From contig JAZDHJ010000059.1 in assembly GCA_043805995.1 (NCBI GenBank), positions 71 to 64,070 on the forward strand: a stretch of DNA of 64,000 nt, read 5' to 3'. The notes under the pieces are model-generated. The model saw only the letters and a program-made list of their open reading frames with translations. It was not told where the DNA came from and searched no databases. A program made the translations under genes and the position numbers. The stretch comes from Candidatus Uhrbacteria bacterium. Lineage in GTDB: Bacteria; Patescibacteriota; Patescibacteriia; UBA9934; GWF2-40-263. Shown here piece after piece: positions 252 through 64,000 of this stretch; the stretch's first letter is position 1, and every line of letters begins with the position of its first letter.

Positions 252-509
252 CTAAATTAATCGTTTTCTCGAAAAAGCGTAACCAGAATTACCTTTCAAA
301 TAAGCTTCAAATTCCTGAGCTTTTTTCTTTGAAGAAAAAGCAGCATACCAGACAATTTTCCAAGGCCTGAATTTTTTAGTGTACAAAGATTTTCCGTCGT
401 TGTGTTCTTTTAATCGTTCCGATGGATCTATTTCAGTAAAACCGTAATAATAACGTTTATCTAATTCGCTTTGTAAGACGTAAACAAACCACATAATTTT
501 GCGGCCCAC
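252..509 (-). CDS. GIY-YIG nuclease family protein (small, UPF0213/YhbQ-like)
   Basis: 85 aa; N-terminal motif FVYVLQS...YYYGFT matches the GIY-YIG signature; lies directly beside tRNA-Asp. Confidence 0.65.
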   Translation of the reverse strand: MGRKIMWFVYVLQSELDKRYYYGFTEIDPSERLKEHNDGKSLYTKKFRPWKIVWYAAFSSKKKAQEFEAYLKGNSGYAFSRKRLI

Positions 510-575
510 TTCGCTCGCGACGAGCTACGTTGGGGCCATCCCTACCGTAGCCTCGTCCAACGAGGCGAAGGGGGA
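509..575. repeat. Two inverted units of the CCTTCGC(T)CG-loop-CGAGCTACGGAAGG palindromic repeat directly abutting the tRNA-Asp 3' CCA
   Basis: cttcgctcgcgacgagctacg and ccgtagcctcgtccaacgaggcgaagg read directly; the same motif family recurs more than 10 times in the window. Confidence 0.6.
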
Positions 576-653
576 TGGCGGACTGGAAGGGATTTGAACC
601 CTTGATCTTCTCCGTGACAGGGAGACGTGTTAACCGGGCTACACCACCAATCC
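576..653 (-). tRNA. tRNA-Asp (anticodon GTC) with encoded CCA
   Basis: Reverse complement GGATTGGTGGTGTAGCCCGGTTAACACGTCTCCCTGTCACGGAGAAGATCAAGGGTTCAAATCCCTTCCAGTCCGCCA; folds as a cloverleaf with D stem GTGT/ACAC, anticodon stem TCTCC/GGAGA, loop CTGTCAC and T arm AAGGG-TTCAAAT-CCCTT. Confidence 0.85.
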
Positions 654-759: not shown

Positions 760-850
760 GTCTTCGAGGGGTTGAACCACCCTTCCTCCTTCGCTCGGGC
801 TTCGGAAGGACAGGTCGCTCGTGGCGAGCTACGGAGTGGCGTGGCGGGGG
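760..850. repeat. CCTTCGC...CGGAAGG palindromic repeat cluster
   Basis: ccttcctccttcgctcgggcttcggaaggacaggtcgctcgtggcgagctacgg; same family as at 509-575, 5985-6050, 8521-8640, 18666-18740, 37880-38010 and 53505-54000. Confidence 0.55.
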
Positions 851-5782: not shown

Positions 5783-6050
5783 ATGTTGGTGATTATAGCA
5801 CGGATTGGGGTGGAGTTGGGAGGCGACATGGGCTTCAGGCCTCGCCCGTAGGCTATGGCCGAGGGGGCTTGATGGGCTTGGCTGGAGAGGCCAGAAGAGG
5901 CTTAAAAGGCTTGAGAGGCTTTGTGGGGGATGGTTTTAGGGACTAAGGTTGGAACTGGGAAACGTTTCTAAATCAAAGCCACGCGGCCCTCCTTCGCTAG
6001 GGCTACGGAAGGGTGAACGAGATCCTTCTCTGGCTCAGGATGACAAATAT
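5783..6050. repeat. Composite intergenic repeat block: a G-rich GGCCTCGCCCGTAGGCTATGGCCGAGGGGG unit plus CCTTCGCTAGGGCTACGGAAGGG and GATCCTTCT-TGGCTCAGGATGACA units
   Basis: The same submotifs are seen at 8521-8640, 32690-32870, 35395-35570 and 42404-42740. Confidence 0.55.
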
Positions 6051-8444: not shown

Positions 8445-8769
8445 GGTGGAAATTATTGAATTTTCAAATTATTTAATTATTGAATTATGGAAAATTATCT
8501 TTTACATTTTTAAAATTAACCCTTTCTCCTTCTCTCGAGCTTCCTCCTTCGCTCGTGACGAGCTACGGAAGGACGCGGTCGGAAGGACAAACCGCTCGCG
8601 TCGAGTGGCAAACGAGATCCTTCTTTGGCTCAGGATGACAGGTGAATTGGAATGTCAAATGACAAATGATGGAATTTATTATTCTAAAAATTCAACCTCC
8701 ATACTTAGACACCCCTAACAATCGAGCTTCCTTAATTCAATAATTCAGAAATTAAATAATTCAATAATT
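8445..8769. repeat. Intergenic repeat block: AT-rich AATTATTGAAT iterations plus a CCTTCGCTCGTGACGAGCTACGGAAGG unit and a GATCCTTCTTTGGCTCAGGATGACA unit
   Basis: Direct reading; the same units occur elsewhere (5985-6050, 17770-17830, 60090-60110). Confidence 0.5.
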
Positions 8770-10158
8770 TCAAATCTCCTTTATCTCCACAAAATTTACC
8801 CGTTTACCGACTGGCTGACCAGCTAAAATGATTATTTTTTCTCCCTGTTTAACCAAATGTTCTTTTTTTAATCTTTTAATGGATTTGGCAATCAAATCAT
8901 CAATATTAAAAGTTTTAGGAATGGCGATAGGCGAGACAGCCCAGGATAAACACAATTGATGGCGAACAAATTCGGAAGCGGTGGCGGAAATAATCGGTAG
9001 TTCTGGTCTAAAACGGCTAACCAATCGCGCAGTACTACCGGAAAGTGTAGCTACTAAAATAGCATTGGCCTTAACTGTACGAGACAATAAGTTGGCCGCG
9101 CCGCCAATAGCATCCTCGATAACTTTTACAAAACCCGCCGCCTCATCTGGCGAAACATCGTCAAAAGGTGAGGCCTCGGTTTCCATAATAATTTTTGCCA
9201 TGGTCTCGACGGCCTCGACCGGGTATTTACCGGTTGCGGTTTCACCCGACAACATGACGGCGTCGGTGTGATCAATAACCGCATTGGCAACGTCGGAAAC
9301 CTCGGCCCGCGTCGGTCGAGGATTTCGGATCATGGAATCGAGCATTTGGGTGGCCACAATAACTGACTTACCAATTGTCCGGCACTTTTCAATTATTTCT
9401 TTTTGCACTAAAGGCACCTGCTCGGCCGGAATCTCGATTCCTAAATCACCACGAGCCACCATGACGGCGTCGACTTCTTTGAGAATTTCATCGAAACGAC
9501 GAACCGCTTCGTGCTTTTCGATTTTCGCAATAATCATGGGAATTGGTTGACTGGCTTTGGCTTTTGTTTTTAAAAGACGTCGCAGATTGCGAATGTCTTT
9601 AGGATCAGTCACAAACGACATGGCGACATAATGTACGCCTTCACGGACACAAAAAGCCGCATCTAAACGGTCTTTTTCGGTAAGTGGTTCAATTTTTAGC
9701 GTTGAGTCGGGAAAATTTAAACCTTTATGAGAAGTAAGCGTGCCACCGACGTTAACTTTAATTTTTAAAAATCCGGACTTACCGCCGATACACTCGCCAT
9801 CCATAATTCCATCATCAAGCAAAATCCGATCGCCTTTTTTGACGTCACGAAAAAGATTCGGATAAGTGACTGGAACCTCAATTGTTTCTCCTTTAACAAT
9901 TTTCAAACCTGCCGCCGGCAAATCACCAACTCTAATTTTTGGTCCTTGGAGATCACCAATAATAGCAATCGGTTCACCAAGTTTTTTCTCAACCGCTCGA
10001 ATACTTCTAATCGTCGCCCGATGACTTTTATAATCACCATGCGACAAATTTAATCGAGCCACGTTCATACCACTGCGAATCAATCGGGTAAGTTTAACAG
10101 TTGATGAAGAAGCTGGACCGATGGTGCAAACTATTTTAGTTCTTTTTTGTGGTTTCAT
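8770..10158 (-). CDS. pyk: Pyruvate kinase
   Basis: 462 aa; N-terminal TKIVCTIGPAS...MNVARLNLSHG is characteristic of pyruvate kinase. Confidence 0.9.
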   Translation of the reverse strand: MKPQKRTKIVCTIGPASSSTVKLTRLIRSGMNVARLNLSHGDYKSHRATIRSIRAVEKKLGEPIAIIGDLQGPKIRVGDLPAAGLKIVKGETIEVPVTYPNLFRDVKKGDRILLDDGIMDGECIGGKSGFLKIKVNVGGTLTSHKGLNFPDSTLKIEPLTEKDRLDAAFCVREGVHYVAMSFVTDPKDIRNLRRLLKTKAKASQPIPMIIAKIEKHEAVRRFDEILKEVDAVMVARGDLGIEIPAEQVPLVQKEIIEKCRTIGKSVIVATQMLDSMIRNPRPTRAEVSDVANAVIDHTDAVMLSGETATGKYPVEAVETMAKIIMETEASPFDDVSPDEAAGFVKVIEDAIGGAANLLSRTVKANAILVATLSGSTARLVSRFRPELPIISATASEFVRHQLCLSWAVSPIAIPKTFNIDDLIAKSIKRLKKEHLVKQGEKIIILAGQPVGKRVNFVEIKEI

Positions 10159-11591: not shown

Positions 11592-11733
11592 GGGTTACGA
11601 ATCACGAATTTTGACACGAATCTACGAATCAACGAAATTGGTTTTTATTTTCAAAACAACATTCGTTGATTCGCCGTGCCCATCCGTAGCTCGTCACGAG
11701 CGAAGGTGGGTGACACAATTCGTTATTCGTAAC
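11592..11733. mobile_element. Degenerate third copy of the GGGGTGCGAATAACGAAT-TIR MITE
   Basis: Left end GGGGTTACGAATCACGAAT and internal ATTCGTTATTCGTAAC resemble the TIRs of the copies at 18647-18879 and 36235-36431; it contains a CCTTCGC-family unit. Confidence 0.4.
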
Positions 11734-37789: not shown

Positions 37790-38010
37790 CTATGTCGCTC
37801 ACGAGCGACGGTGAATTTTATGGTCGAAGACCATGAACAGTGAGGGTAAATGAAACTGTGAGCCCCTCGATTGGCCTCGGGACATTCGACTACAGCGGTA
37901 ACAGTACAGCTGTCCGCCCTCCGTCGCTCGTGCCGAGCTATGGAGGGCATCCTTCGCAAAAAGCGAGCAAAATGATGGCCCGCCATCCGAAGCTCGCCAC
38001 GAGCGAAGGA
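37790..38010. repeat. CCTTCGC-family palindromic repeat cluster abutting the tRNA-Val 3' end
   Basis: CCGTCGCTCGTGCCGAGCTATGGAGGG and CCATCCGAAGCTCGCCACGAGCGAAGGATGG run directly into the tRNA CCA. Confidence 0.55.
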
Positions 38011-38087
38011 TGGTGGACGTTACTGGATTCGAACCAGTGACCTTTGCAATGTGAATGCAACGCTCTAACCAGCTGAGCTAAACGTCC
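38011..38087 (-). tRNA. tRNA-Val (anticodon CAC) with encoded CCA
   Basis: Reverse complement GGACGTTTAGCTCAGCTGGTTAGAGCGTTGCATTCACATTGCAAAGGTCACTGGTTCGAATCCAGTAACGTCCACCA; clean cloverleaf. Confidence 0.9.
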
Positions 38088-41041: not shown

Positions 41042-42403
41042 ATGTCAAAAATACCTACTGTCGCCATTATCGGCCGAACCAACGTTGGCAAATCAACTTT
41101 GTTCAACCGCATGATCGAACAACCAAAAGCTTTAATTTCCAGCGTGCCTGGCACAACTCGCGATCGCAACGAAGCCGAGGTTCTTTGGCGAGCCAAAATC
41201 TTTCGCGTGGTCGACACTGGCGGCACTGACAGCAAATTTGGTAAGGAAATCGAAAAGGCAACCGTTGACCAGGTTTGGCGAGCAGCGAATGAAGCCGACA
41301 TAATTCTTTTTGTTGTTGATTTAAAAACCGGTCCTATGCCTCAGGAACGAGCTTTGGCCAAAAAACTCAAAACCATAAACAAGCCAGTTATTGTCGTCGG
41401 CAACAAAGCCGAAACACCAAACCTAGTCGCTTCGGTTCACAATCCGGAATGGCGTTTAGCCGGTCTGCGTTCACCAATGGCGGTTTCGGCCTTACGCGGC
41501 ACTGGTGTCGGAGATTTACTTGATTTGATTCACAAGGAACTTAGAAAAATAAAACGTCCATCAACCGAAAGAAACGAAGATCAAATAGTTCGTGTCGCCA
41601 TTATTGGCAAACCTAATGTTGGCAAATCTTCCATTGTCAACGCCATTCTTGGTGAGGAAAGAGTTATTACCAGTCCAATGACTCATACCACCCGCGAACC
41701 AATTGATACTAAAATTGAATTGAATGGTAAAAAATATCTTTTCATCGACACGGCCGGCATGAGAAAAAGCGGTAAAGTTAAACGAGCGGGCGGACTCGAA
41801 GCAGCTGGCGTGGCGCGTTCCAAAAAAGCCGCTGAAACAGCCGACGTGGTTCTTATGGTTATGGAAGCCAACGAACAAATCGGTACTCAAGATAAAGCTA
41901 TTGCTGGAATTTTAGATTCTTCAAACGCCGGCGTTATTATTGTCGCCAACAAATGGGATTTGGTGGCGGGCAAAACCCCGACCACCATTAATGATTACGA
42001 AAAATACGTGGCTGGCATGATGCCCTTCATTTCTTACGCGCCAATCGTTTTCACTTCAGCCAAAACCGGCCAGCGTATCGAAAACATTTTCACCTTAATC
42101 GACCAAGTCCAAGCCGCCAGAACCCGAGAATTAACCGAAGAAGAATTAGAAAAATTCTTGCGCCAAGCTGTCTCCCACCGCGCCCCAATCAGAGGCAAAG
42201 TGGTTAAACCACCAAAAGCTCTCGGTTTACGTCAAACCGGCACCTGCCCGCCGTCTTTCGCGGTCACCATCAAAGCCAAACGCGAGGACGCCATCAGCCA
42301 AAGTTATTTGCGCTATATTGAAAATCGCCTACACGAAGAATTCGATTTCACTGGTACACCGGTTGTGGTTAAGGCGAGGCTGCCGAGAATTACGGCCGTT
42401 TAG
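41042..42403 (+). CDS. der: Ribosome-biogenesis GTPase Der (EngA), two tandem GTPase domains plus KH-like C-terminus
   Basis: VAIIGRTNVGKSTLFN and VAIIGKPNVGKSSIVN P-loops. Confidence 0.95.
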   Translation: MSKIPTVAIIGRTNVGKSTLFNRMIEQPKALISSVPGTTRDRNEAEVLWRAKIFRVVDTGGTDSKFGKEIEKATVDQVWRAANEADIILFVVDLKTGPMPQERALAKKLKTINKPVIVVGNKAETPNLVASVHNPEWRLAGLRSPMAVSALRGTGVGDLLDLIHKELRKIKRPSTERNEDQIVRVAIIGKPNVGKSSIVNAILGEERVITSPMTHTTREPIDTKIELNGKKYLFIDTAGMRKSGKVKRAGGLEAAGVARSKKAAETADVVLMVMEANEQIGTQDKAIAGILDSSNAGVIIVANKWDLVAGKTPTTINDYEKYVAGMMPFISYAPIVFTSAKTGQRIENIFTLIDQVQAARTRELTEEELEKFLRQAVSHRAPIRGKVVKPPKALGLRQTGTCPPSFAVTIKAKREDAISQSYLRYIENRLHEEFDFTGTPVVVKARLPRITAV

Positions 42404-42740
42404 ATTGGAGGGGTTAAAGGGGGCGAAGGCCTCGCCCATGGCCAGGCTATGGCCGAGGGGGTTGCAAGGGATTTTTAGTTGGGATTGGATAAGGGTGATT
42501 ATCGGAAGTTGGGGTGATTGTTTAGGTAATTAGTTGGTAGTTGTTATTTTTGAACTCTGATTCCTTATAATCTGTAAGGGAATAATTATTCCGATCAAAA
42601 AACAATCACCTAAAAAATCACCCCCGATAATCACCAAACCCCACCCCTAACCAACTTAAAACCTCCCTCCAACACCCGCCACGTCCTTCCGAAGCCCAGC
42701 GAAGGAGGATTAAACCCCTTCCATCCCCTAACCCCACCCA
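42404..42740. repeat. Large (about 335 bp) imperfectly palindromic G-rich intergenic element
   Basis: The left arm GGTGATTATCGGAAGTTGGGGTGATTGTTT is mirrored by AAACAATCACC...CCCCGATAATCACC on the right; it contains GGCCTCGCCCATGGCCAGGCTATGGCCGAGGGGG and ends with a CCTTCCGAAGCCCAGCGAAGGAGG unit. Confidence 0.55.
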
Positions 42741-53130: not shown

Positions 53131-53159
53131 AAGCGGTTGTATTATAGCATATCGGTTGT

Positions 53160-53240
53160 TGGGGTTTAAGGGGTTGAAGGGGCATAAGGGGTTGAAGGGA
53201 AATTTTACCGTAGGGGCGAGAGGCCTCTCGCCCTATATTG
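53160..53240. repeat. G-rich GGGGTTTAAGGGGTTGAAGGGG ... GGGCGAGAGGCCTCTCGCCC repeat
   Basis: Same family as 10170-10384. Confidence 0.5.
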
Positions 53241-53297
53241 AAGATTATTTTTTCATTTTACAAAACAAAAACACCTGACGATAAAGTCGGGTGTTTT

Positions 53298-53374
53298 TGG
53301 TTGCGGGGGTCGGATTTGAACCGACGACCTTCTGGTTATGAGCCAGACGAGCTGCCAGGCTGCTCTACCCCGCG
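53298..53374 (-). tRNA. Initiator tRNA-fMet (anticodon CAT)
   Basis: Reverse complement CGCGGGGTAGAGCAGCCTGGCAGCTCGTCTGGCTCATAACCAGAAGGTCGTCGGTTCAAATCCGACCCCCGCAACCA; C1:A72 mismatch; near-identical to the E. coli initiator. Confidence 0.9.
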
Positions 53375-53427
53375 ATGTTTTATTTCTGGGCTAAGAATAC
53401 TTCTTTTTTCTTGGCCTGTCAACGATT

Positions 53428-53504
53428 TGGTAGCGGGAGCCGGAATCGAACCGGCGACCTAAGGCTTATGAGTCCTTCGCTCTAACCGACTGAGCTATCC
53501 CGCC
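53428..53504 (-). tRNA. Elongator tRNA with CAT anticodon (Met or lysidine-Ile)
   Basis: Reverse complement GGCGGGATAGCTCAGTCGGTTAGAGCGAAGGACTCATAAGCCTTAGGTCGCCGGTTCGATTCCGGCTCCCGCTACCA. Confidence 0.85.
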
Positions 53505-53600
53505 ATTTTTGCGAGGTCGGTTCAATTACCGACTGCTTGCCCTTCCGTAGCTCGCCACGAGCGTAGGAGGGAGCTATCCCGCCATGTCTTTAAAACGGGT
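53505..53600. repeat. CCTTCGC-family repeat plus a 14-nt duplication of the 5' end of the adjacent tRNA (GAGCTATCCCGCCA)
   Basis: CTTCCGTAGCTCGCCACGAGCGTAGGAGG followed by GAGCTATCCCGCCATG, which duplicates tRNA positions 1-14. Confidence 0.55.
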
Positions 53601-53656
53601 AAATAATACCAAACTCTTGAACTTCTGACAAGGTTTTGATAACATATCCTCACCGA

Positions 53657-53758
53657 TATTTTAAATGGGCGAGTGGCGGAACCCTCCTTCGCTAGGGCTT
53701 CGGAAGGGCAAGCTGGTATAGGTGATTAACCGCCACTAAAATTTAAAAACAACAAAAT
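53657..53758. repeat. 16-nt duplication of the tRNA-Leu 5' end (GGGCGAGTGGCGGAAC) followed by a CCTTCGC-family unit and scrambled tRNA-like fragments
   Basis: GGGCGAGTGGCGGAAC|CCTCCTTCGCTAGGGCTTCGGAAGGG...CTGGTATA...AACCGCCACT, then the intact tRNA. Confidence 0.55.
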
Positions 53759-53845
53759 GGGCGAGTGGCGGAACTGGTATACGCGCAGGACTCAAAATCC
53801 TGTGTTCGCAAGAGCATGAGAGTTCGATTCTCTCCTCGCCCACCA
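53759..53845 (+). tRNA. tRNA-Leu (anticodon CAA), long variable arm, encoded CCA
   Basis: GGGCGAGTGGCGGAACTGGTATACGCGCAGGACTCAAAATCCTGTGTTCGCAAGAGCATGAGAGTTCGATTCTCTCCTCGCCCACCA. Confidence 0.9.
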
Positions 53846-54000
53846 CCCTTCGCTCTGTGGCAGAGCTTCGGGTGGCAGGCCACCCTATTTGGCGAAGGGT
53901 GTCCCCCATAGCTCGACGCGAGCAGCTTGTCCTTCCGACCGTGTCCTCCCGTAGCTCGCCACGAGCGAAGGAGGAAGCCCGGCGAAGGAGGACGGGGGAC
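53846..54000. repeat. Cluster of CCTTCGC...GCGAAGG palindromic units starting at the first base after the tRNA-Leu CCA
   Basis: CCCTTCGCTCTGTGGCAGAGCTTCGGGTGGCAGGCCACCCTATTTGGCGAAGGG; CCCGTAGCTCGCCACGAGCGAAGGAGG. Confidence 0.55.
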
Positions 54001-54121
54001 GCAAAACATGGAAGCAAGTGGCCGGCCGAAAATAAAATAACCATTTAATTGGTTGTTTTTGTTTTATCCACTTAATCTTCCCAAAAGGACAAAAAAATGC
54101 TATTCTATATCCAGTTAAACT

Positions 54122-60893: not shown

Positions 60894-62291
60894 TTATTTC
60901 AATTTAATATGCACATCAGACAAGGTTTTTTCTGGCAGTTCACTTGGTGCGCCCATCATCAAATCTCGGGCGTCACCGGTTTTTGGCATTGGTATAACTT
61001 CGCGAATATTCGGCTCATTGGCCAATATCATAATAATACGATCAATGCCCGGAGCGATACCACCATGTGGTGGCGCACCAAAAGAAAAAGCCTCCAACAT
61101 GTGACCAAATTGGGATTGAATTTGTTCTTCATTAAAACCCATGATTTCCAAAACCTTATGCAAAGCATCGGCGGAATGATTACGGATACTGCCACCACCG
61201 GCTTCATAGCCATTTAAAACGATATCGTATTGGGTAGTGAGAATATCACCGATGTTTTCTTGATTCATCAATTGTTCTCGATGTTCAGGAATAGCCGCCG
61301 AGAAAGGATTGTGAGTAAAGGTCCAGCCGCCTTCTTCGGTTTTTTCAAAAAACGGAAAATCAATCACCCAGCAAAAAGCCAAAAGATTTGGATCGTTTTT
61401 ATCCTCACGAAGATCAGGCTTATCGCAACCATATTTTTCCATTGATTCCTGGTAAGACAAACGAGGAAACGGCACTTGTTGAATTCGTTTTTCTGGCGTT
61501 ACAGTCTTAACCATCTCAATCATCATTTCTTCGATCAAGCTCATAACATCCTCACGCTCGACAAAAGACATTTCCAAATCAAGCTGAGTGAATTCAGGTT
61601 GACGATCGCCACGTTGATCTTCATCGCGGAAGCAACGAGCGACCTGAAAATATCTTTCCACTCCACCGACCATTAACAACTGTTTAAACTGCTGGGGTGA
61701 TTGCGGCAACACATACATTTGGCCAGCGTGAATACGTGAAGGCACCAAAAATTCGCGAGCGCCTTCTGGAGTGCCTTTAGTTAAAATTGGTGTTTCAACC
61801 TCAATAAAATCTCTTTGATGCAAAAAACCGCGAAAAAAAGTTTCAACTTTATCACGCAAGATTAAATTTTTATGCAGGCGTTCGCTGCGCAAATCGAGAT
61901 ATCGATATTTCAAACGAAGTTCCTCGTTAACACCGATGGTATCTTTATCGATTTCGAACGGTGGTGTTTTGCAGGTGTTTAAAACTTTAAAAGATTTGGC
62001 AGCTACCTCAACCGTACCGGTTGGCATGTCTGGGTTGAGTTGCTTTTCTCCACGTTTTTGCACCACACCCTCAATTTCCAAAACATATTCCCCACCGACC
62101 TCATCAACAGCTTTTAACGAAACCTCGTCGAGATCTGGTTTATAACAAACAACTTGAACAATACCACTACGATCTCGCAAGTCGATAAAAACGAGTTTCT
62201 CACCCATGCGACGAATGCAATGAGCCCAACCATTAAGTTTTACCGTTTCCCCCACTTTATTTATTGTTTGGCTATTCCAGGTTCTGGTCAT
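60894..62291 (-). CDS. aspS: Aspartate--tRNA ligase, short form without the GAD insertion
   Basis: FRDEDQRGDRQPEFTQLDLE (motif 2); HNPFSA...GGGSIRNH...GAPPHGGIAPGIDRI...IPMPKT (motif 3) matches bacterial AspRS. Confidence 0.8.
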   Translation of the reverse strand: MTRTWNSQTINKVGETVKLNGWAHCIRRMGEKLVFIDLRDRSGIVQVVCYKPDLDEVSLKAVDEVGGEYVLEIEGVVQKRGEKQLNPDMPTGTVEVAAKSFKVLNTCKTPPFEIDKDTIGVNEELRLKYRYLDLRSERLHKNLILRDKVETFFRGFLHQRDFIEVETPILTKGTPEGAREFLVPSRIHAGQMYVLPQSPQQFKQLLMVGGVERYFQVARCFRDEDQRGDRQPEFTQLDLEMSFVEREDVMSLIEEMMIEMVKTVTPEKRIQQVPFPRLSYQESMEKYGCDKPDLREDKNDPNLLAFCWVIDFPFFEKTEEGGWTFTHNPFSAAIPEHREQLMNQENIGDILTTQYDIVLNGYEAGGGSIRNHSADALHKVLEIMGFNEEQIQSQFGHMLEAFSFGAPPHGGIAPGIDRIIMILANEPNIREVIPMPKTGDARDLMMGAPSELPEKTLSDVHIKLK

Positions 62292-63579: not shown

Positions 63580-64000
63580 CTAAGGCGTCGACCGATTCAA
63601 CGTTCTCGGAAAAGGAATCGTTTCGCGAACGTGATGAACTCCGGTCACCCAACGAACAATTCGCTCTAATCCAGGACCGAAGCCACTGTGTGGTACACTG
63701 CCGTACTTTCGAGTGTTAAGATACCATTCATACTGCTCGAGCGGATAATTTCGATTAACAATTTCTTTTTTTAATTTTTCATAATCTTCTTCACGCTGGC
63801 TACCACCAATAATTTCCCGGCCTTCTTCCGGAGCAATAAGGTCGGCACAAACCGCTCGATAAACTCCGGCCTCGTCGGTGTAATGCTTCATGTAAAAAGC
63901 TTTGACGACGGCTGGGTAATCTTCGATAAAAACTGGCAGTTGATATTTGTTGCCAAGATAAATTTCTTCTTCGGTTGACATGTCGTCGAGTGGATCGACA
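63580..64000 (-). CDS. asnS: Asparagine--tRNA ligase, C-terminal fragment (gene continues beyond the window edge)
   Basis: GGSQREEDYE...EQYEWYLNTRKYGSVPHSGFGPGLERIVRWVTGVHHVRETIPFPRT matches AsnRS motif 3. Confidence 0.8.
   Translation of the reverse strand, partial: VDPLDDMSTEEEIYLGNKYQLPVFIEDYPAVVKAFYMKHYTDEAGVYRAVCADLIAPEEGREIIGGSQREEDYEKLKKEIVNRNYPLEQYEWYLNTRKYGSVPHSGFGPGLERIVRWVTGVHHVRETIPFPRTLNRSTP

Follow-up and report, generated by a model that had tools for sequence, protein, structure and literature searches.

The 64-kb chromosomal stretch of Candidatus Uhrbacteria (Patescibacteria, candidate phyla radiation or CPR) analysed here, referred to as the window and ordinary in gene content, contains a family of short palindromic hairpins, referred to as units, which begin at the 3' CCA of three of its five tRNA genes and recur at the CCA ends of tRNA genes in at least eight phyla. 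The CCA-end hairpin looks like a tRNA-end-specific mobile element not previously described. On balance, the units probably belong to a family of mobile hairpins resembling the repetitive extragenic palindromes (REPs), one sub-lineage of which is specific for tRNA acceptor ends, and have been trapped upstream of tRNA genes in stereotyped triplications of the tRNA 5' end.

Hairpin units at the CCA ends of tRNA genes

The core of the unit, CCGWAGCTCG-NNN-CGAGCGWAGG, is REP-like. On the strand antisense to the adjacent tRNA the unit reads X-CC-G(T/A)A-GCTCG-NNN-CGAGC-G(T/A)A-GG-X', usually preceded by C(T/C)(T/C)G, and on the tRNA-sense strand it reads X-CC-T(T/A)CG-CTCG-NNN-CGAG-CT(T/A)C-GG-X'-C-R-R-G; an inner stem of 5 bp (GCTCG/CGAGC) with a loop of 3 nt is joined through a symmetric internal loop (GWA/GWA) to a variable outer helix, and a short tail, C-R-R-G, completes the unit. 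A short form has the inner stem replaced (for example by CCTCCTTCGCTAGGGCTTCGGAAGGGCAAG). In the window, CCTTCGC occurs 21 times against 7.3 expected and GCTCGNNNCGAGC nine times against 0.02 expected; there are about 18 copies of the unit in the 64 kb, and dozens more in loci of Taylorbacteria and DeMMO3_36. All eight canonical long units lie between large open reading frames (ORFs), six of them no more than 150 nt from a tRNA. Dispersed copies predicted originally from the sequence were found near 5988, 8543 and 11679, and others at 777-839 and 42683-42708.

On the tRNA-sense strand, the outer helix CCTCC/GGAAGG, a common one, contains a C.A mismatch that is a G.T pair on the opposite strand, and its antisense version folds better (-16.6 vs -11.5 kcal/mol). 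Counts of G.T against A.C, taken as a test of which strand forms the structure, are suggestive at two positions and give a weak hint of the antisense strand (overall p = 0.06, with non-independent copies). Searches of the window and of unit-rich loci against Rfam, at gathering and permissive thresholds, returned tRNA and tmRNA matches only, the sub-threshold matches over units being miRNA-like noise. Derivation of the unit from a tRNA D-arm (GTAGCTC..GAGCG) was considered and found no support past a shared motif of 7+5 nt.

The trailers of tRNA-Asp, tRNA-Val and tRNA-Leu in the window hold two to four units each in mixed orientation (Table 1), and Alphaproteobacteria have tandem arrays. In all three trailers CCA-N-CC pairs with GG-N'-TGG (CCACCC/GGGTGG being the outer helix of the first Leu unit), and folding predictions give the hairpins z-scores of -3.5 to -3.9. 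The composite of Val units 2 and 3 is also found 3' of other tRNAs in relatives (L040, L133 and L148; L-numbers denote retrieved loci). The original prediction had units starting at the CCA of four of the five tRNAs. This stands for Asp, Val and Leu, where the start is the CCA itself, but fails at the elongator CAT tRNA. The 'cca' noted there (53503-53505) is on the wrong strand for this minus-strand gene, being the complement of bases at and just before its 5' end, so that three tRNAs, not four, have a unit at the CCA. The true 3' end of the elongator gene (53428) is followed by AATCG and then by TTGACA, which belongs to the promoter (TTGACA-17-TATTCT) of the initiator tRNA, and its unit is located upstream, within the 5' module described below.

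The association extends well beyond the window. In a first set of loci (889 kb), chosen by the unit core only, the core is 1-5 nt 3' of 10 of 64 tRNAs, against about 0.02 expected, and has one orientation in all ten cases. About 20 tRNA trailers from at least eight phyla have one common junction, CCA-N-CC-TWCG..CTWC-GG-N'-TGG-CRRG-CCA. A metagenome scan for the CCA-type unit, requiring neither a tRNA nor N/N' pairing, gave 35 matches, of which 25 are at the 3' CCA of an ARAGORN-predicted tRNA with an offset of 0 (at least 12 isoacceptors), one is at a tmRNA CCA and one at a tRNA cut by a contig end (27 of 35 at tRNA or tmRNA); most of the remainder follow a helix plus NCCA. The N/N' pair beside the CCA is Watson-Crick in 34 of the 35, with all four pair types represented (p = 1e-16). 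N covaries as well with a distal GCGAAGG-N'-TG, and in 31 of the 35 the tail, of 4-5 nt, leads into a second CCA (p = 1e-42). At single-unit sites (L068, L087, L124, L138, L144) the second CCA is followed by an AT-rich, native-looking flank or a terminator. A tmRNA (L128, 8783-9217) has a unit starting at its CCA, and in L129 (~460-575) a unit begins at the ACCA end of an 88-nt tRNA-like RNA, within a tRNA array, that neither ARAGORN nor Rfam called. Outside tRNA-like ends the CCA-type outer helix is essentially absent, and the enrichment at tRNA 3' ends suggested by the window is borne out by the core-selected loci, the trailers and the metagenome scan alike.

Unit-rich loci of Taylorbacteria contain seven tRNAs, six of them lacking an encoded CCA, and none has an adjacent unit. 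At a CCA-less tRNA-Ser gene of Saccharibacteria, the outer helix of the unit uses the 3' strand of the acceptor stem (TCCGCC/GGCGGA), which is repeated after the tail. Together these cases point to the gene sequence, not the mature tRNA, as what is recognised. A Verrucomicrobiales metagenome-assembled genome (MAG) has at least 12 tRNA genes within ~2.5 kb (L068, 2900-5450), two of which have units at or near their 3' ends.

The suggestion that the repeat acts as a terminator of tRNA transcripts did not hold up: no T-run follows the units, and hairpins with a T-run are found downstream of the arrays in the window (54039-54065), L124 and L144. A simple terminator scan of 53150-54120 called none, and the hairpin at 54039-54065 has a weak stem with few G-C pairs. 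Its position beyond the Leu array indicates that the units were inserted between the tRNA and its terminator and are not themselves terminators.

Variation among relatives and sites of insertion

Syntenic ParA-tRNA loci were retrieved from relatives with ParA 79-91% identical to that of the window. The orthologous tRNA-Leu and tRNA-CAT loci are either empty or filled in differing combinations: in L005/L007 (ParA 79%) every site is empty, with a terminator 1 nt after the tRNA-Leu CCA; L116 (88%) has no insert; L110 (89%) has a sole unit, at the tRNA-CAT CCA; L113/L114 (89%) have both 5' modules and no 3' units; and L001/L002 (91%) have the CAT module and, directly after the CCA of both tRNAs, a different palindrome (TTCGACTACAG..). 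Empty sites have the terminator directly after the CCA, and the composition of the array at one tRNA differs between genomes. This variation between close relatives, together with the enrichment at 3' ends, supports the earlier idea of an element that docks on tRNA genes.

Units also nest in other units, either in a hairpin loop or in the GWA internal loop (786-814 in 777-839 of the window; L013/L058; L064; L095; the L002 module). Insertions in the D-loop are at the stem/loop junction and those at 3' ends are at the single-stranded NCCA tail, and the base after the unit tail is C in nested, D-loop and 3' cases alike (CAG, CTG, CCA, CGC). These sites suggest a common theme of insertion at unpaired nucleotides at the foot of a helix, for which the target may have been a folded single strand.

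The palindrome found at the CCAs of two tRNAs in the closest relative (TTCGACTACAG..CTGTAGTCGA(A/G); L001/L002 downstream of tRNA-Leu and tRNA-CAT) occurs in the window at ~37880-37915; its location directly after the CCA makes the post-CCA position a hotspot for more than one hairpin family. In the same relatives (L001 ~9100-9210, L002 ~2640-2700) the site syntenic to the initiator tRNA keeps only the 5' half of the gene, abutting a PDDEXK_5-family gene, with a HinfI-type restriction-modification pair nearby in L001; this truncation looks like a separate insertion.

Triplicated 5' ends of tRNA genes

Duplications of tRNA 5' ends, first noticed beside the CAT tRNA and tRNA-Leu, are exact over 15 nt (CAT) and 20 nt (Leu), each including two to four leader bases, and they recur elsewhere. 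Among 113 distinct tRNAs whose upstream sequence was long enough for a survey, direct-match scores are bimodal, and 11 tRNAs have an upstream copy of the 5' end of at least 11 nt, compared with a background maximum of 9. The copy starts at tRNA position 1 except in L059 (position 2) and the L113 tRNA-Leu (position 6). Alignment took in about ten modules (CAT and Leu of both the window and L113; L002 CAT; L083 Pro; L121 Val; L135 Val; L142 Pro and Ile; and, as a variant, tRNA-Arg of L059, in which no unit interrupts the fragment), representing seven tRNA species (six without L059) with one architecture and one orientation of the unit. The native promoter and leader are followed by tRNA positions 1-12/13 (..TAGCT(C); 1-15/16 in tRNA-Leu), a unit oriented as at 3' ends with a CAAG or CAGA tail, the tRNA's own D-loop (C-AGTTGGT, with lineage variants), a 0-9-nt loop, the tRNA 5' end copied in inverted orientation (at most positions 2-21), a short A-rich, leader-like stretch and the intact tRNA. 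The direct repeats are 12-22 nt long, and the unit sits at the boundary of D-stem and D-loop. The order direct-inverted-direct is found in at least seven modules, with inverted-match scores of 7-11 against a background mode of 5-6, and the inverted arm matches its own tRNA (positions 2-21 in L121, 3-19 in L142-Ile and 4-20 in L113).

The interpretation of these repeats as target-site duplications fails on three features: the unit is followed by the tRNA's D-loop and then by an inverted copy of the 5' end, and the native promoter is upstream of the fragment. Alignment of ten modules ruled out a simple target-site duplication. In the window, a predicted promoter is upstream of the CAT fragment and not of the intact tRNA, and in empty relatives the same promoter is directly upstream of the tRNA, which identifies the fragment as the original 5' end. 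The number of modules can differ between strains: L001 (8500-8830) and L002 (2240-2360), which are 99.8-100% identical and come from different samples, differ by one extra tandem 116-nt tRNA-CAT module, either through real expansion or contraction via 14-nt direct repeats or through assembly collapse.

Several other tRNA loci have rearranged ends. In L083 (3365-3440), ARAGORN placed a module of fragment, unit and D-loop within a tRNA-like span, so that 5' modules can yield false or shifted tRNA annotations. In L063 (5900-6210, Saccharibacteria) the old 3' end of a tRNA-Ser, with its unit, is displaced by 150 nt by a gene-restoring insert; in L030 (3000-3320, Taylorbacteria) a stretch of 66 nt from the T-loop of tRNA-Tyr is directly repeated; L023 (440-560, Uhrbacteria) has a tRNA-Thr 3' fragment after a unit; and L059 (190-640, Thermoanaerobaculia) has 5' (-7..+23) and 3' (12-nt) duplicates of a tRNA-Arg.

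Distribution of the unit

A scan for the 23-nt core, taking one genome per species, found more than 102 stretches in at least ten phyla, with carriers among Uhrbacteria, Taylorbacteria, Saccharibacteria, Wirthbacteria, Margulisiibacteriota, Dependentiae, Verrucomicrobiota, Acidobacteriota, Alphaproteobacteria, Planctomycetota, Elusimicrobiota and one cyanobacterium. Six of the core matches, in Alphaproteobacteria and Opitutae (L008, L034, L047, L055, L091, L101), are coding look-alikes and were excluded as chance. The architecture is constant across carriers, and outer helices and flanks are genome-specific; copies within one genome have loop and flank features in common, as expected from amplification within the genome. 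All carriers are MAGs or single-amplified genomes (SAGs), from many studies, with closed long-read assemblies among them (e.g. OY970224.1). Full-text searches of the open-access literature for the core and the tRNA-end palindromes found only primer coincidences and unrelated papers, and the core is absent from the supplements of a REP survey.

Comparison with known repeats and elements

REPs are short imperfect palindromes, tagged with GTAG or CGTC, that are known from eight phyla and commonly form inverted dimers and clusters, sometimes within other palindromes (PMC3733652). Those of GTAG type are associated with RAYT enzymes of the HUH-Y1 class, which are thought to mobilise them on single-stranded DNA hairpins (PMC3733652, PMC3479197); a RAYT requires a 5' GTAG plus a hairpin, cuts at a CT dinucleotide to either side in single-stranded DNA, and can carry out strand transfer (PMC3479197). 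The units resemble REPs and the bacterial interspersed mosaic elements (BIMEs) that they compose in being imperfect palindromes of 25-40 nt, of high copy number, extragenic and often in inverted pairs and clusters, in having variable stems with compensatory changes and a G(T/A)AG directly 5' of a small stem, and in occurring in several phyla, including Verrucomicrobia, Planctomycetes, Cyanobacteria and Alphaproteobacteria, with insertion within palindromes (PMC3733652). Unlike REPs, the units have a 23-nt core that is near-identical across phyla, and they are specific for tRNA and tmRNA CCA ends, with the CCA within the helix; no mention of such a tRNA-end rule was found in the REP papers (PMC3733652, PMC3479197) or in the wider open-access literature. 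A cognate RAYT (PF01797-type HUH-Y1), a gene typically flanked by REPs, was not found among the ORFs of the window, and neither a unit-flanked ORF of this kind nor a match to the HUH-Y motif was found in the ~1.1 Mb of loci covered.

The insertion sequence IS608 (IS200/IS605 family) recognises its target by pairing with bases at the foot of a hairpin. In the IS200/IS605 family and its miniature derivatives, palindrome-associated transposable elements (PATEs), hairpins define the ends, and insertion is into single-stranded DNA beside a short target, with specificity for strand and orientation and with no classical target-site duplication (PMC3479197). The units can be likened to these elements, having a fixed CCA at the left junction and a single orientation, but here a single ~35-nt hairpin would be the whole element, the TGG that pairs with the target CCA is 3' of the hairpin and does so by ordinary Watson-Crick pairing, the right junction has a CCA as well, and neither TnpA nor TnpB was seen. 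Classical miniature inverted-repeat transposable elements (MITEs) and DDE transposons, with terminal inverted repeats and a target-site duplication of fixed length, do not match: the direct repeats here are of unlike lengths, 3 nt (CCA) at 3' ends, 0-1 nt at the D-loop and 12-22 nt for the modules, and the interior of the modules is derived from the target.

Inverted triplications that arise when replication errs at short inverted repeats form an established class of rearrangement (PMC4689423). The 5' modules resemble the products of ODIRA (inverted-repeat amplification that depends on an origin), fold-back and duplication-triplication/inverted-duplication (DUP-TRP/INV-DUP) in that the second of three copies is inverted, the junctions fall on inverted repeats that are short and interrupted, and direct repeats permit later remodelling (PMC4689423), but they are made of ~20 nt and not of kilobases, recur at many tRNA genes, have a unit in the first copy, and contain TCG instead of GAG.

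Proposed mechanism and its alternatives

In the proposed mechanism, the units would be non-autonomous mobile palindromes that move on single-stranded DNA and insert at unpaired positions at the feet of helices. The acceptor-end sub-lineage builds its outer helix, CCA-N-CC/GG-N'-TGG, on the tRNA's own 3' CCA, with C-R-R-G and a second CCA after it; such a unit is placed, always in one orientation, between the tRNA and its real terminator, where further units can stack into arrays and nest. The 5' duplications would be a linked second phenomenon. Each is a direct-inverted-direct mini-triplication of about the first 20 nt of the tRNA, an architecture to be expected if replication folded back or switched template at short inverted repeats; the upstream, now dispensable copy carries the unit, and the flanking 13-22-nt direct repeats would then allow further expansion or precise loss.

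Several observations weigh against this mechanism. The GWAG of the unit is internal, on both sides of the inner stem and enclosed by the outer helix, whereas the tag of a REP is terminal and unpaired. According to Pfam, none of the window's ORFs is a transposase, integrase or reverse transcriptase; the ~1.1 Mb of loci gave no match in a crude scan for HUH-Y1 motifs; and all-against-all clustering of ORFs in the loci identified no family that travels with the units, the only multi-locus clusters being the coding look-alikes and lineage-specific genes and a SmpB-like ORF being the only one flanked by inverted units. No pair of empty and filled sites obtained is close enough to fix the boundaries of insertion to the nucleotide, so they are placed within 1-3 nt (nucleotide-level comparison of 3' units gave no boundaries because loci with a common tRNA are not syntenic downstream), and insertion 3' of the CCA, with a terminal or duplicated CCA, is indistinguishable from insertion 5' of it by a CCA-bearing element. 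Nearly all class I modules have TCG in the inverted arm (..ACCAACT-TCG-CTA..) where a faithful copy would have GAG, a substitution that plain copying error does not predict and that leaves an unpaired junction exactly at the branch point of the unit. Moreover, the fragment, D-loop remainder and inverted arm carry each lineage's own tRNA substitutions (AGTCGGT/ACCGAC, AGTTGGT/ACCAACT and AGTTGGC/GCCAACT for CAT; GTGGCGG/CCGCCAC vs GTGGTGG/CCACCAC for Leu), which requires concerted evolution through the repeats, recurrent formation or selection.

A bolder interpretation, offered only tentatively, is that the units are a new class of miniature element, present in many phyla, whose TGG arm pairs as a 3-6-nt guide with the CCA where tRNA, tmRNA and tRNA-like genes end in an acceptor helix plus NCCA, the element placing itself so as to draw the tRNA end into its own hairpin and the same machinery, or replication trouble that it causes, making the 5' modules. 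It is unlikely that the hairpins are instead functional parts of pre-tRNAs, namely a structured leader on the 5' side and, on the 3' side, a trailer helix that sequesters the CCA, with the downstream CCA as a decoy, all kept by selection on how the tRNA is processed, stabilised or regulated in its maturation and not by selfish spread. Such a role would fit the CCA:TGG and N:N' pairing, perfectly maintained across phyla, the constant orientation on the tRNA strand, the co-transcription of units placed before the terminator, the alternative pairings allowed by an X - X' - X layout in which the distal GCGAAGG-N'-TG follows N, and the covariation of fragment and inverted arm with the tRNA of each lineage; but orthologous tRNAs of close relatives are unit-free with plain terminators, the array at one tRNA varies between genomes, many copies of the core lie away from tRNAs, oriented either way with respect to genes, and copies nest in one another, and the antisense version of the CCTCC/GGAAGG helix is the one that folds better, with the wobble counts hinting weakly the same way.

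More doubtful still is spread primed by RNA or by a 3'-OH, in a manner like that of short interspersed elements (SINEs) and retroplasmids or by strand transfer: TGG would serve as the primer-binding site for the CCA-3'-OH of a tRNA, or an HUH enzyme would join unit DNA to the 3'-OH, and the chimera would be copied into the gene. The TGG of retroviral primer-binding sites is likewise complementary to the CCA of a tRNA. The absolute CCA junction at many tRNAs, a tmRNA and tRNA-like RNAs would be explained in this way, as would the A-rich stretches before the intact tRNA in the 5' modules, and a RAYT could in principle pass a cleaved strand to any 3'-OH (PMC3479197). Against such priming, the window has no reverse transcriptase, the six CCA-less tRNA genes of Taylorbacteria are unit-free, the Saccharibacteria unit is joined to the acceptor strand with no CCA, and the A-rich spacers resemble native A-rich leaders. 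A classical cut-and-paste or integrase-type element, with the 14-20-nt repeats as its target-site duplications or att sites, seems very improbable. The docking of integrases at tRNA genes, with partial tRNA duplications around the inserted DNA, offers a parallel, as do the exact 15- and 20-nt direct repeats around ~65-72 nt of foreign-looking sequence, the lack of the insert in relatives, and the att-like tRNA 3'-fragment duplications in L063, L030 and L023. However, what follows the unit is the D-loop and inverted 5' end specific to each tRNA, making the insert, of less than 100 nt, largely target-derived; the repeats vary in length, are 5' and not 3' parts of the tRNA and have the native promoter upstream of the fragment; the module ends lack terminal inverted repeats; and neither an integrase, nor an autonomous element with the same ends, nor the same insert at unrelated targets was seen. 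Chance, or misassembly of GC-rich palindromes, is hardly credible: the restriction of carriers to MAGs and SAGs and the tandem copy number of L001 and L002, which could be misassembled, would be compatible with it, but the architecture is repeated across independent studies, assemblers and complete long-read MAGs, beside lineage-specific tRNAs, and the statistics are far beyond chance.

Other features of the window

The window encodes ParA/ParB, RelA/SpoT, TopA, FtsZ/FtsA, the histidyl- and aspartyl-tRNA synthetases HisRS and AspRS, phosphoenolpyruvate (PEP) synthase, pyruvate kinase and giant surface proteins (identified by Pfam), and the closest relatives of its ParA are from Uhrbacteria, with at most 91% identity. 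ARAGORN and Rfam agree on its five tRNAs (Table 1).

Table 1. tRNA genes, hairpin units, 5' modules and transcription signals of the window
Feature	Position	Strand	Remarks
tRNA-Asp(GTC)	576-653	-	ARAGORN, Rfam
Asp trailer unit 1	536-578	-	basal helix CCATCCC..GGGATGG takes in the tRNA CCA (576-578); -28.4 kcal/mol, z = -3.8
Asp trailer unit 2	505-534	+	opposite orientation to unit 1, BIME-like pair
tRNA-Val(CAC)	38011-38087	-	ARAGORN, Rfam
Val trailer unit 1	37983-38013	-	CCATCC..GGATGG takes in the tRNA CCA (38011-38013); z = -3.9
Val trailer units 2 and 3	37917-37978	-	unit 2 (37948-37978) degenerate; unit 3 at 37917-37947
Initiator-like tRNA(CAT)	53298-53374	-	no unit; ordinary hairpin and T-run after CCA, ~53262-53297
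tRNA(CAT), elongator Met or Ile2	53428-53504	-	no unit at 3' end
CAT duplication ATGGCGGGATAGCTC	53492-53506 and 53571-53585	-	
CAT 5' module	53505-53585	-	fragment, tRNA -2..+13 (53571-53585); unit and CAAG tail (53536-53570); D-loop remainder CAGTCGGT (53528-53535); inverted arm ACCGACCTCGC (53511-53521); A-rich spacer
Predicted native promoter TTGTCA-17-TATTAT	53603-53631	-	
Leu duplication AAATGGGCGAGTGGCGGAAC	53663-53682 and 53755-53774	+	
Leu 5' module	53663-53758	+	fragment, tRNA -4..+16 (53663-53682); short unit and CAAG (53683-53712); D-loop remainder CTGGTATA (53713-53720); inverted arm CCGCCACT (53730-53737); A-rich spacer
tRNA-Leu(CAA)	53759-53845	+	ARAGORN, Rfam
Leu trailer array	53843-53995	+	four units and a half unit: unit 1 with CCA (53843-53875), CAGG, second CCA and degenerate unit 2 (53880-53901), unit 3 (53902-53929), unit 4 in inverted orientation (53944-53975), half unit
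Putative intrinsic terminator of tRNA-Leu transcript	54039-54065	+	hairpin and T-run, read by eye; compare empty sites L110, L113, L005
Dispersed unit (CCACCC..GGAGTGG)	777-839	+	short unit nested at 786-814
Dispersed short-form unit	5988-6013	+	followed by TGTC-tagged hairpin, ~6013-6045
Dispersed long-form unit	8543-8572	+	followed by half unit and TGTC-tagged hairpin, to ~8645
Dispersed long-form unit (CCCACC..GGATGGG)	11679-11710	-	no tRNA adjacent
Dispersed short-form unit	42683-42708	-	

A second hairpin family lies beside units in the window (6013-6045, 8610-8645) and in loci of DeMMO3_36 (e.g. L012, L019, L026). Its reverse complement, TGTCATCCTGAGCCAGAGAAGGATCTCG, fits the CGTC/TGTC-tagged type of REP, as does the hairpin TGTCATCC..GGATCTCG beside some units. 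One strand has 13 nt (TGGCTCAGGATGA) and an ATCCT/AGGAT stem in common with the 5' end universal to 16S rRNA, but the existence of copies with ATCCC/GGGAT suggests convergence of hairpins and not an rRNA origin. A further GC-rich repeat family, GGCCTCGCCC..GGCCGAGGGGG with motifs of GGGGTTGAAGGGG type, occurs at ~5830-5900, 42400-42470 and 53160-53240, and one copy of the GGCCTCGCCC..GGCCGAGGGGG family is just upstream of parA. Near the end of the window, a 133-aa ORF (63580-63981) matches only the C-terminal part of class II aminoacyl-tRNA synthetases (PF00152); it is 1.3 kb from a complete AspRS-like gene (60894-62291), with an unannotated 299-aa ORF between them, and may be a gene fragment or part of a split gene.

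Implications

REP-type palindromes are among the commonest repeats of bacteria, and how they move and choose their sites is still unclear. The units described here obey a sharp target rule, combining the CCA end of tRNA-like genes, Watson-Crick pairing of element and target, one orientation and a CCA at both junctions, which spans bacteria from the CPR to Acidobacteria and Alphaproteobacteria; the rule makes the mechanism of insertion directly testable and offers a handle for an enzyme search by phylogenetic profiling. For genome annotation, units and 5' modules are a source of pseudo-tRNA fragments and false tRNA calls, and they lengthen the leaders and trailers of pre-tRNAs. Stereotyped local rearrangements thus occur at essential single-copy tRNA genes even in tiny genomes. 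If the units do constitute a new class of element, an insertion enzyme guided by structure and pairing, acting on DNA or primed by RNA, would be implied, active even in the minimal genomes of CPR bacteria.

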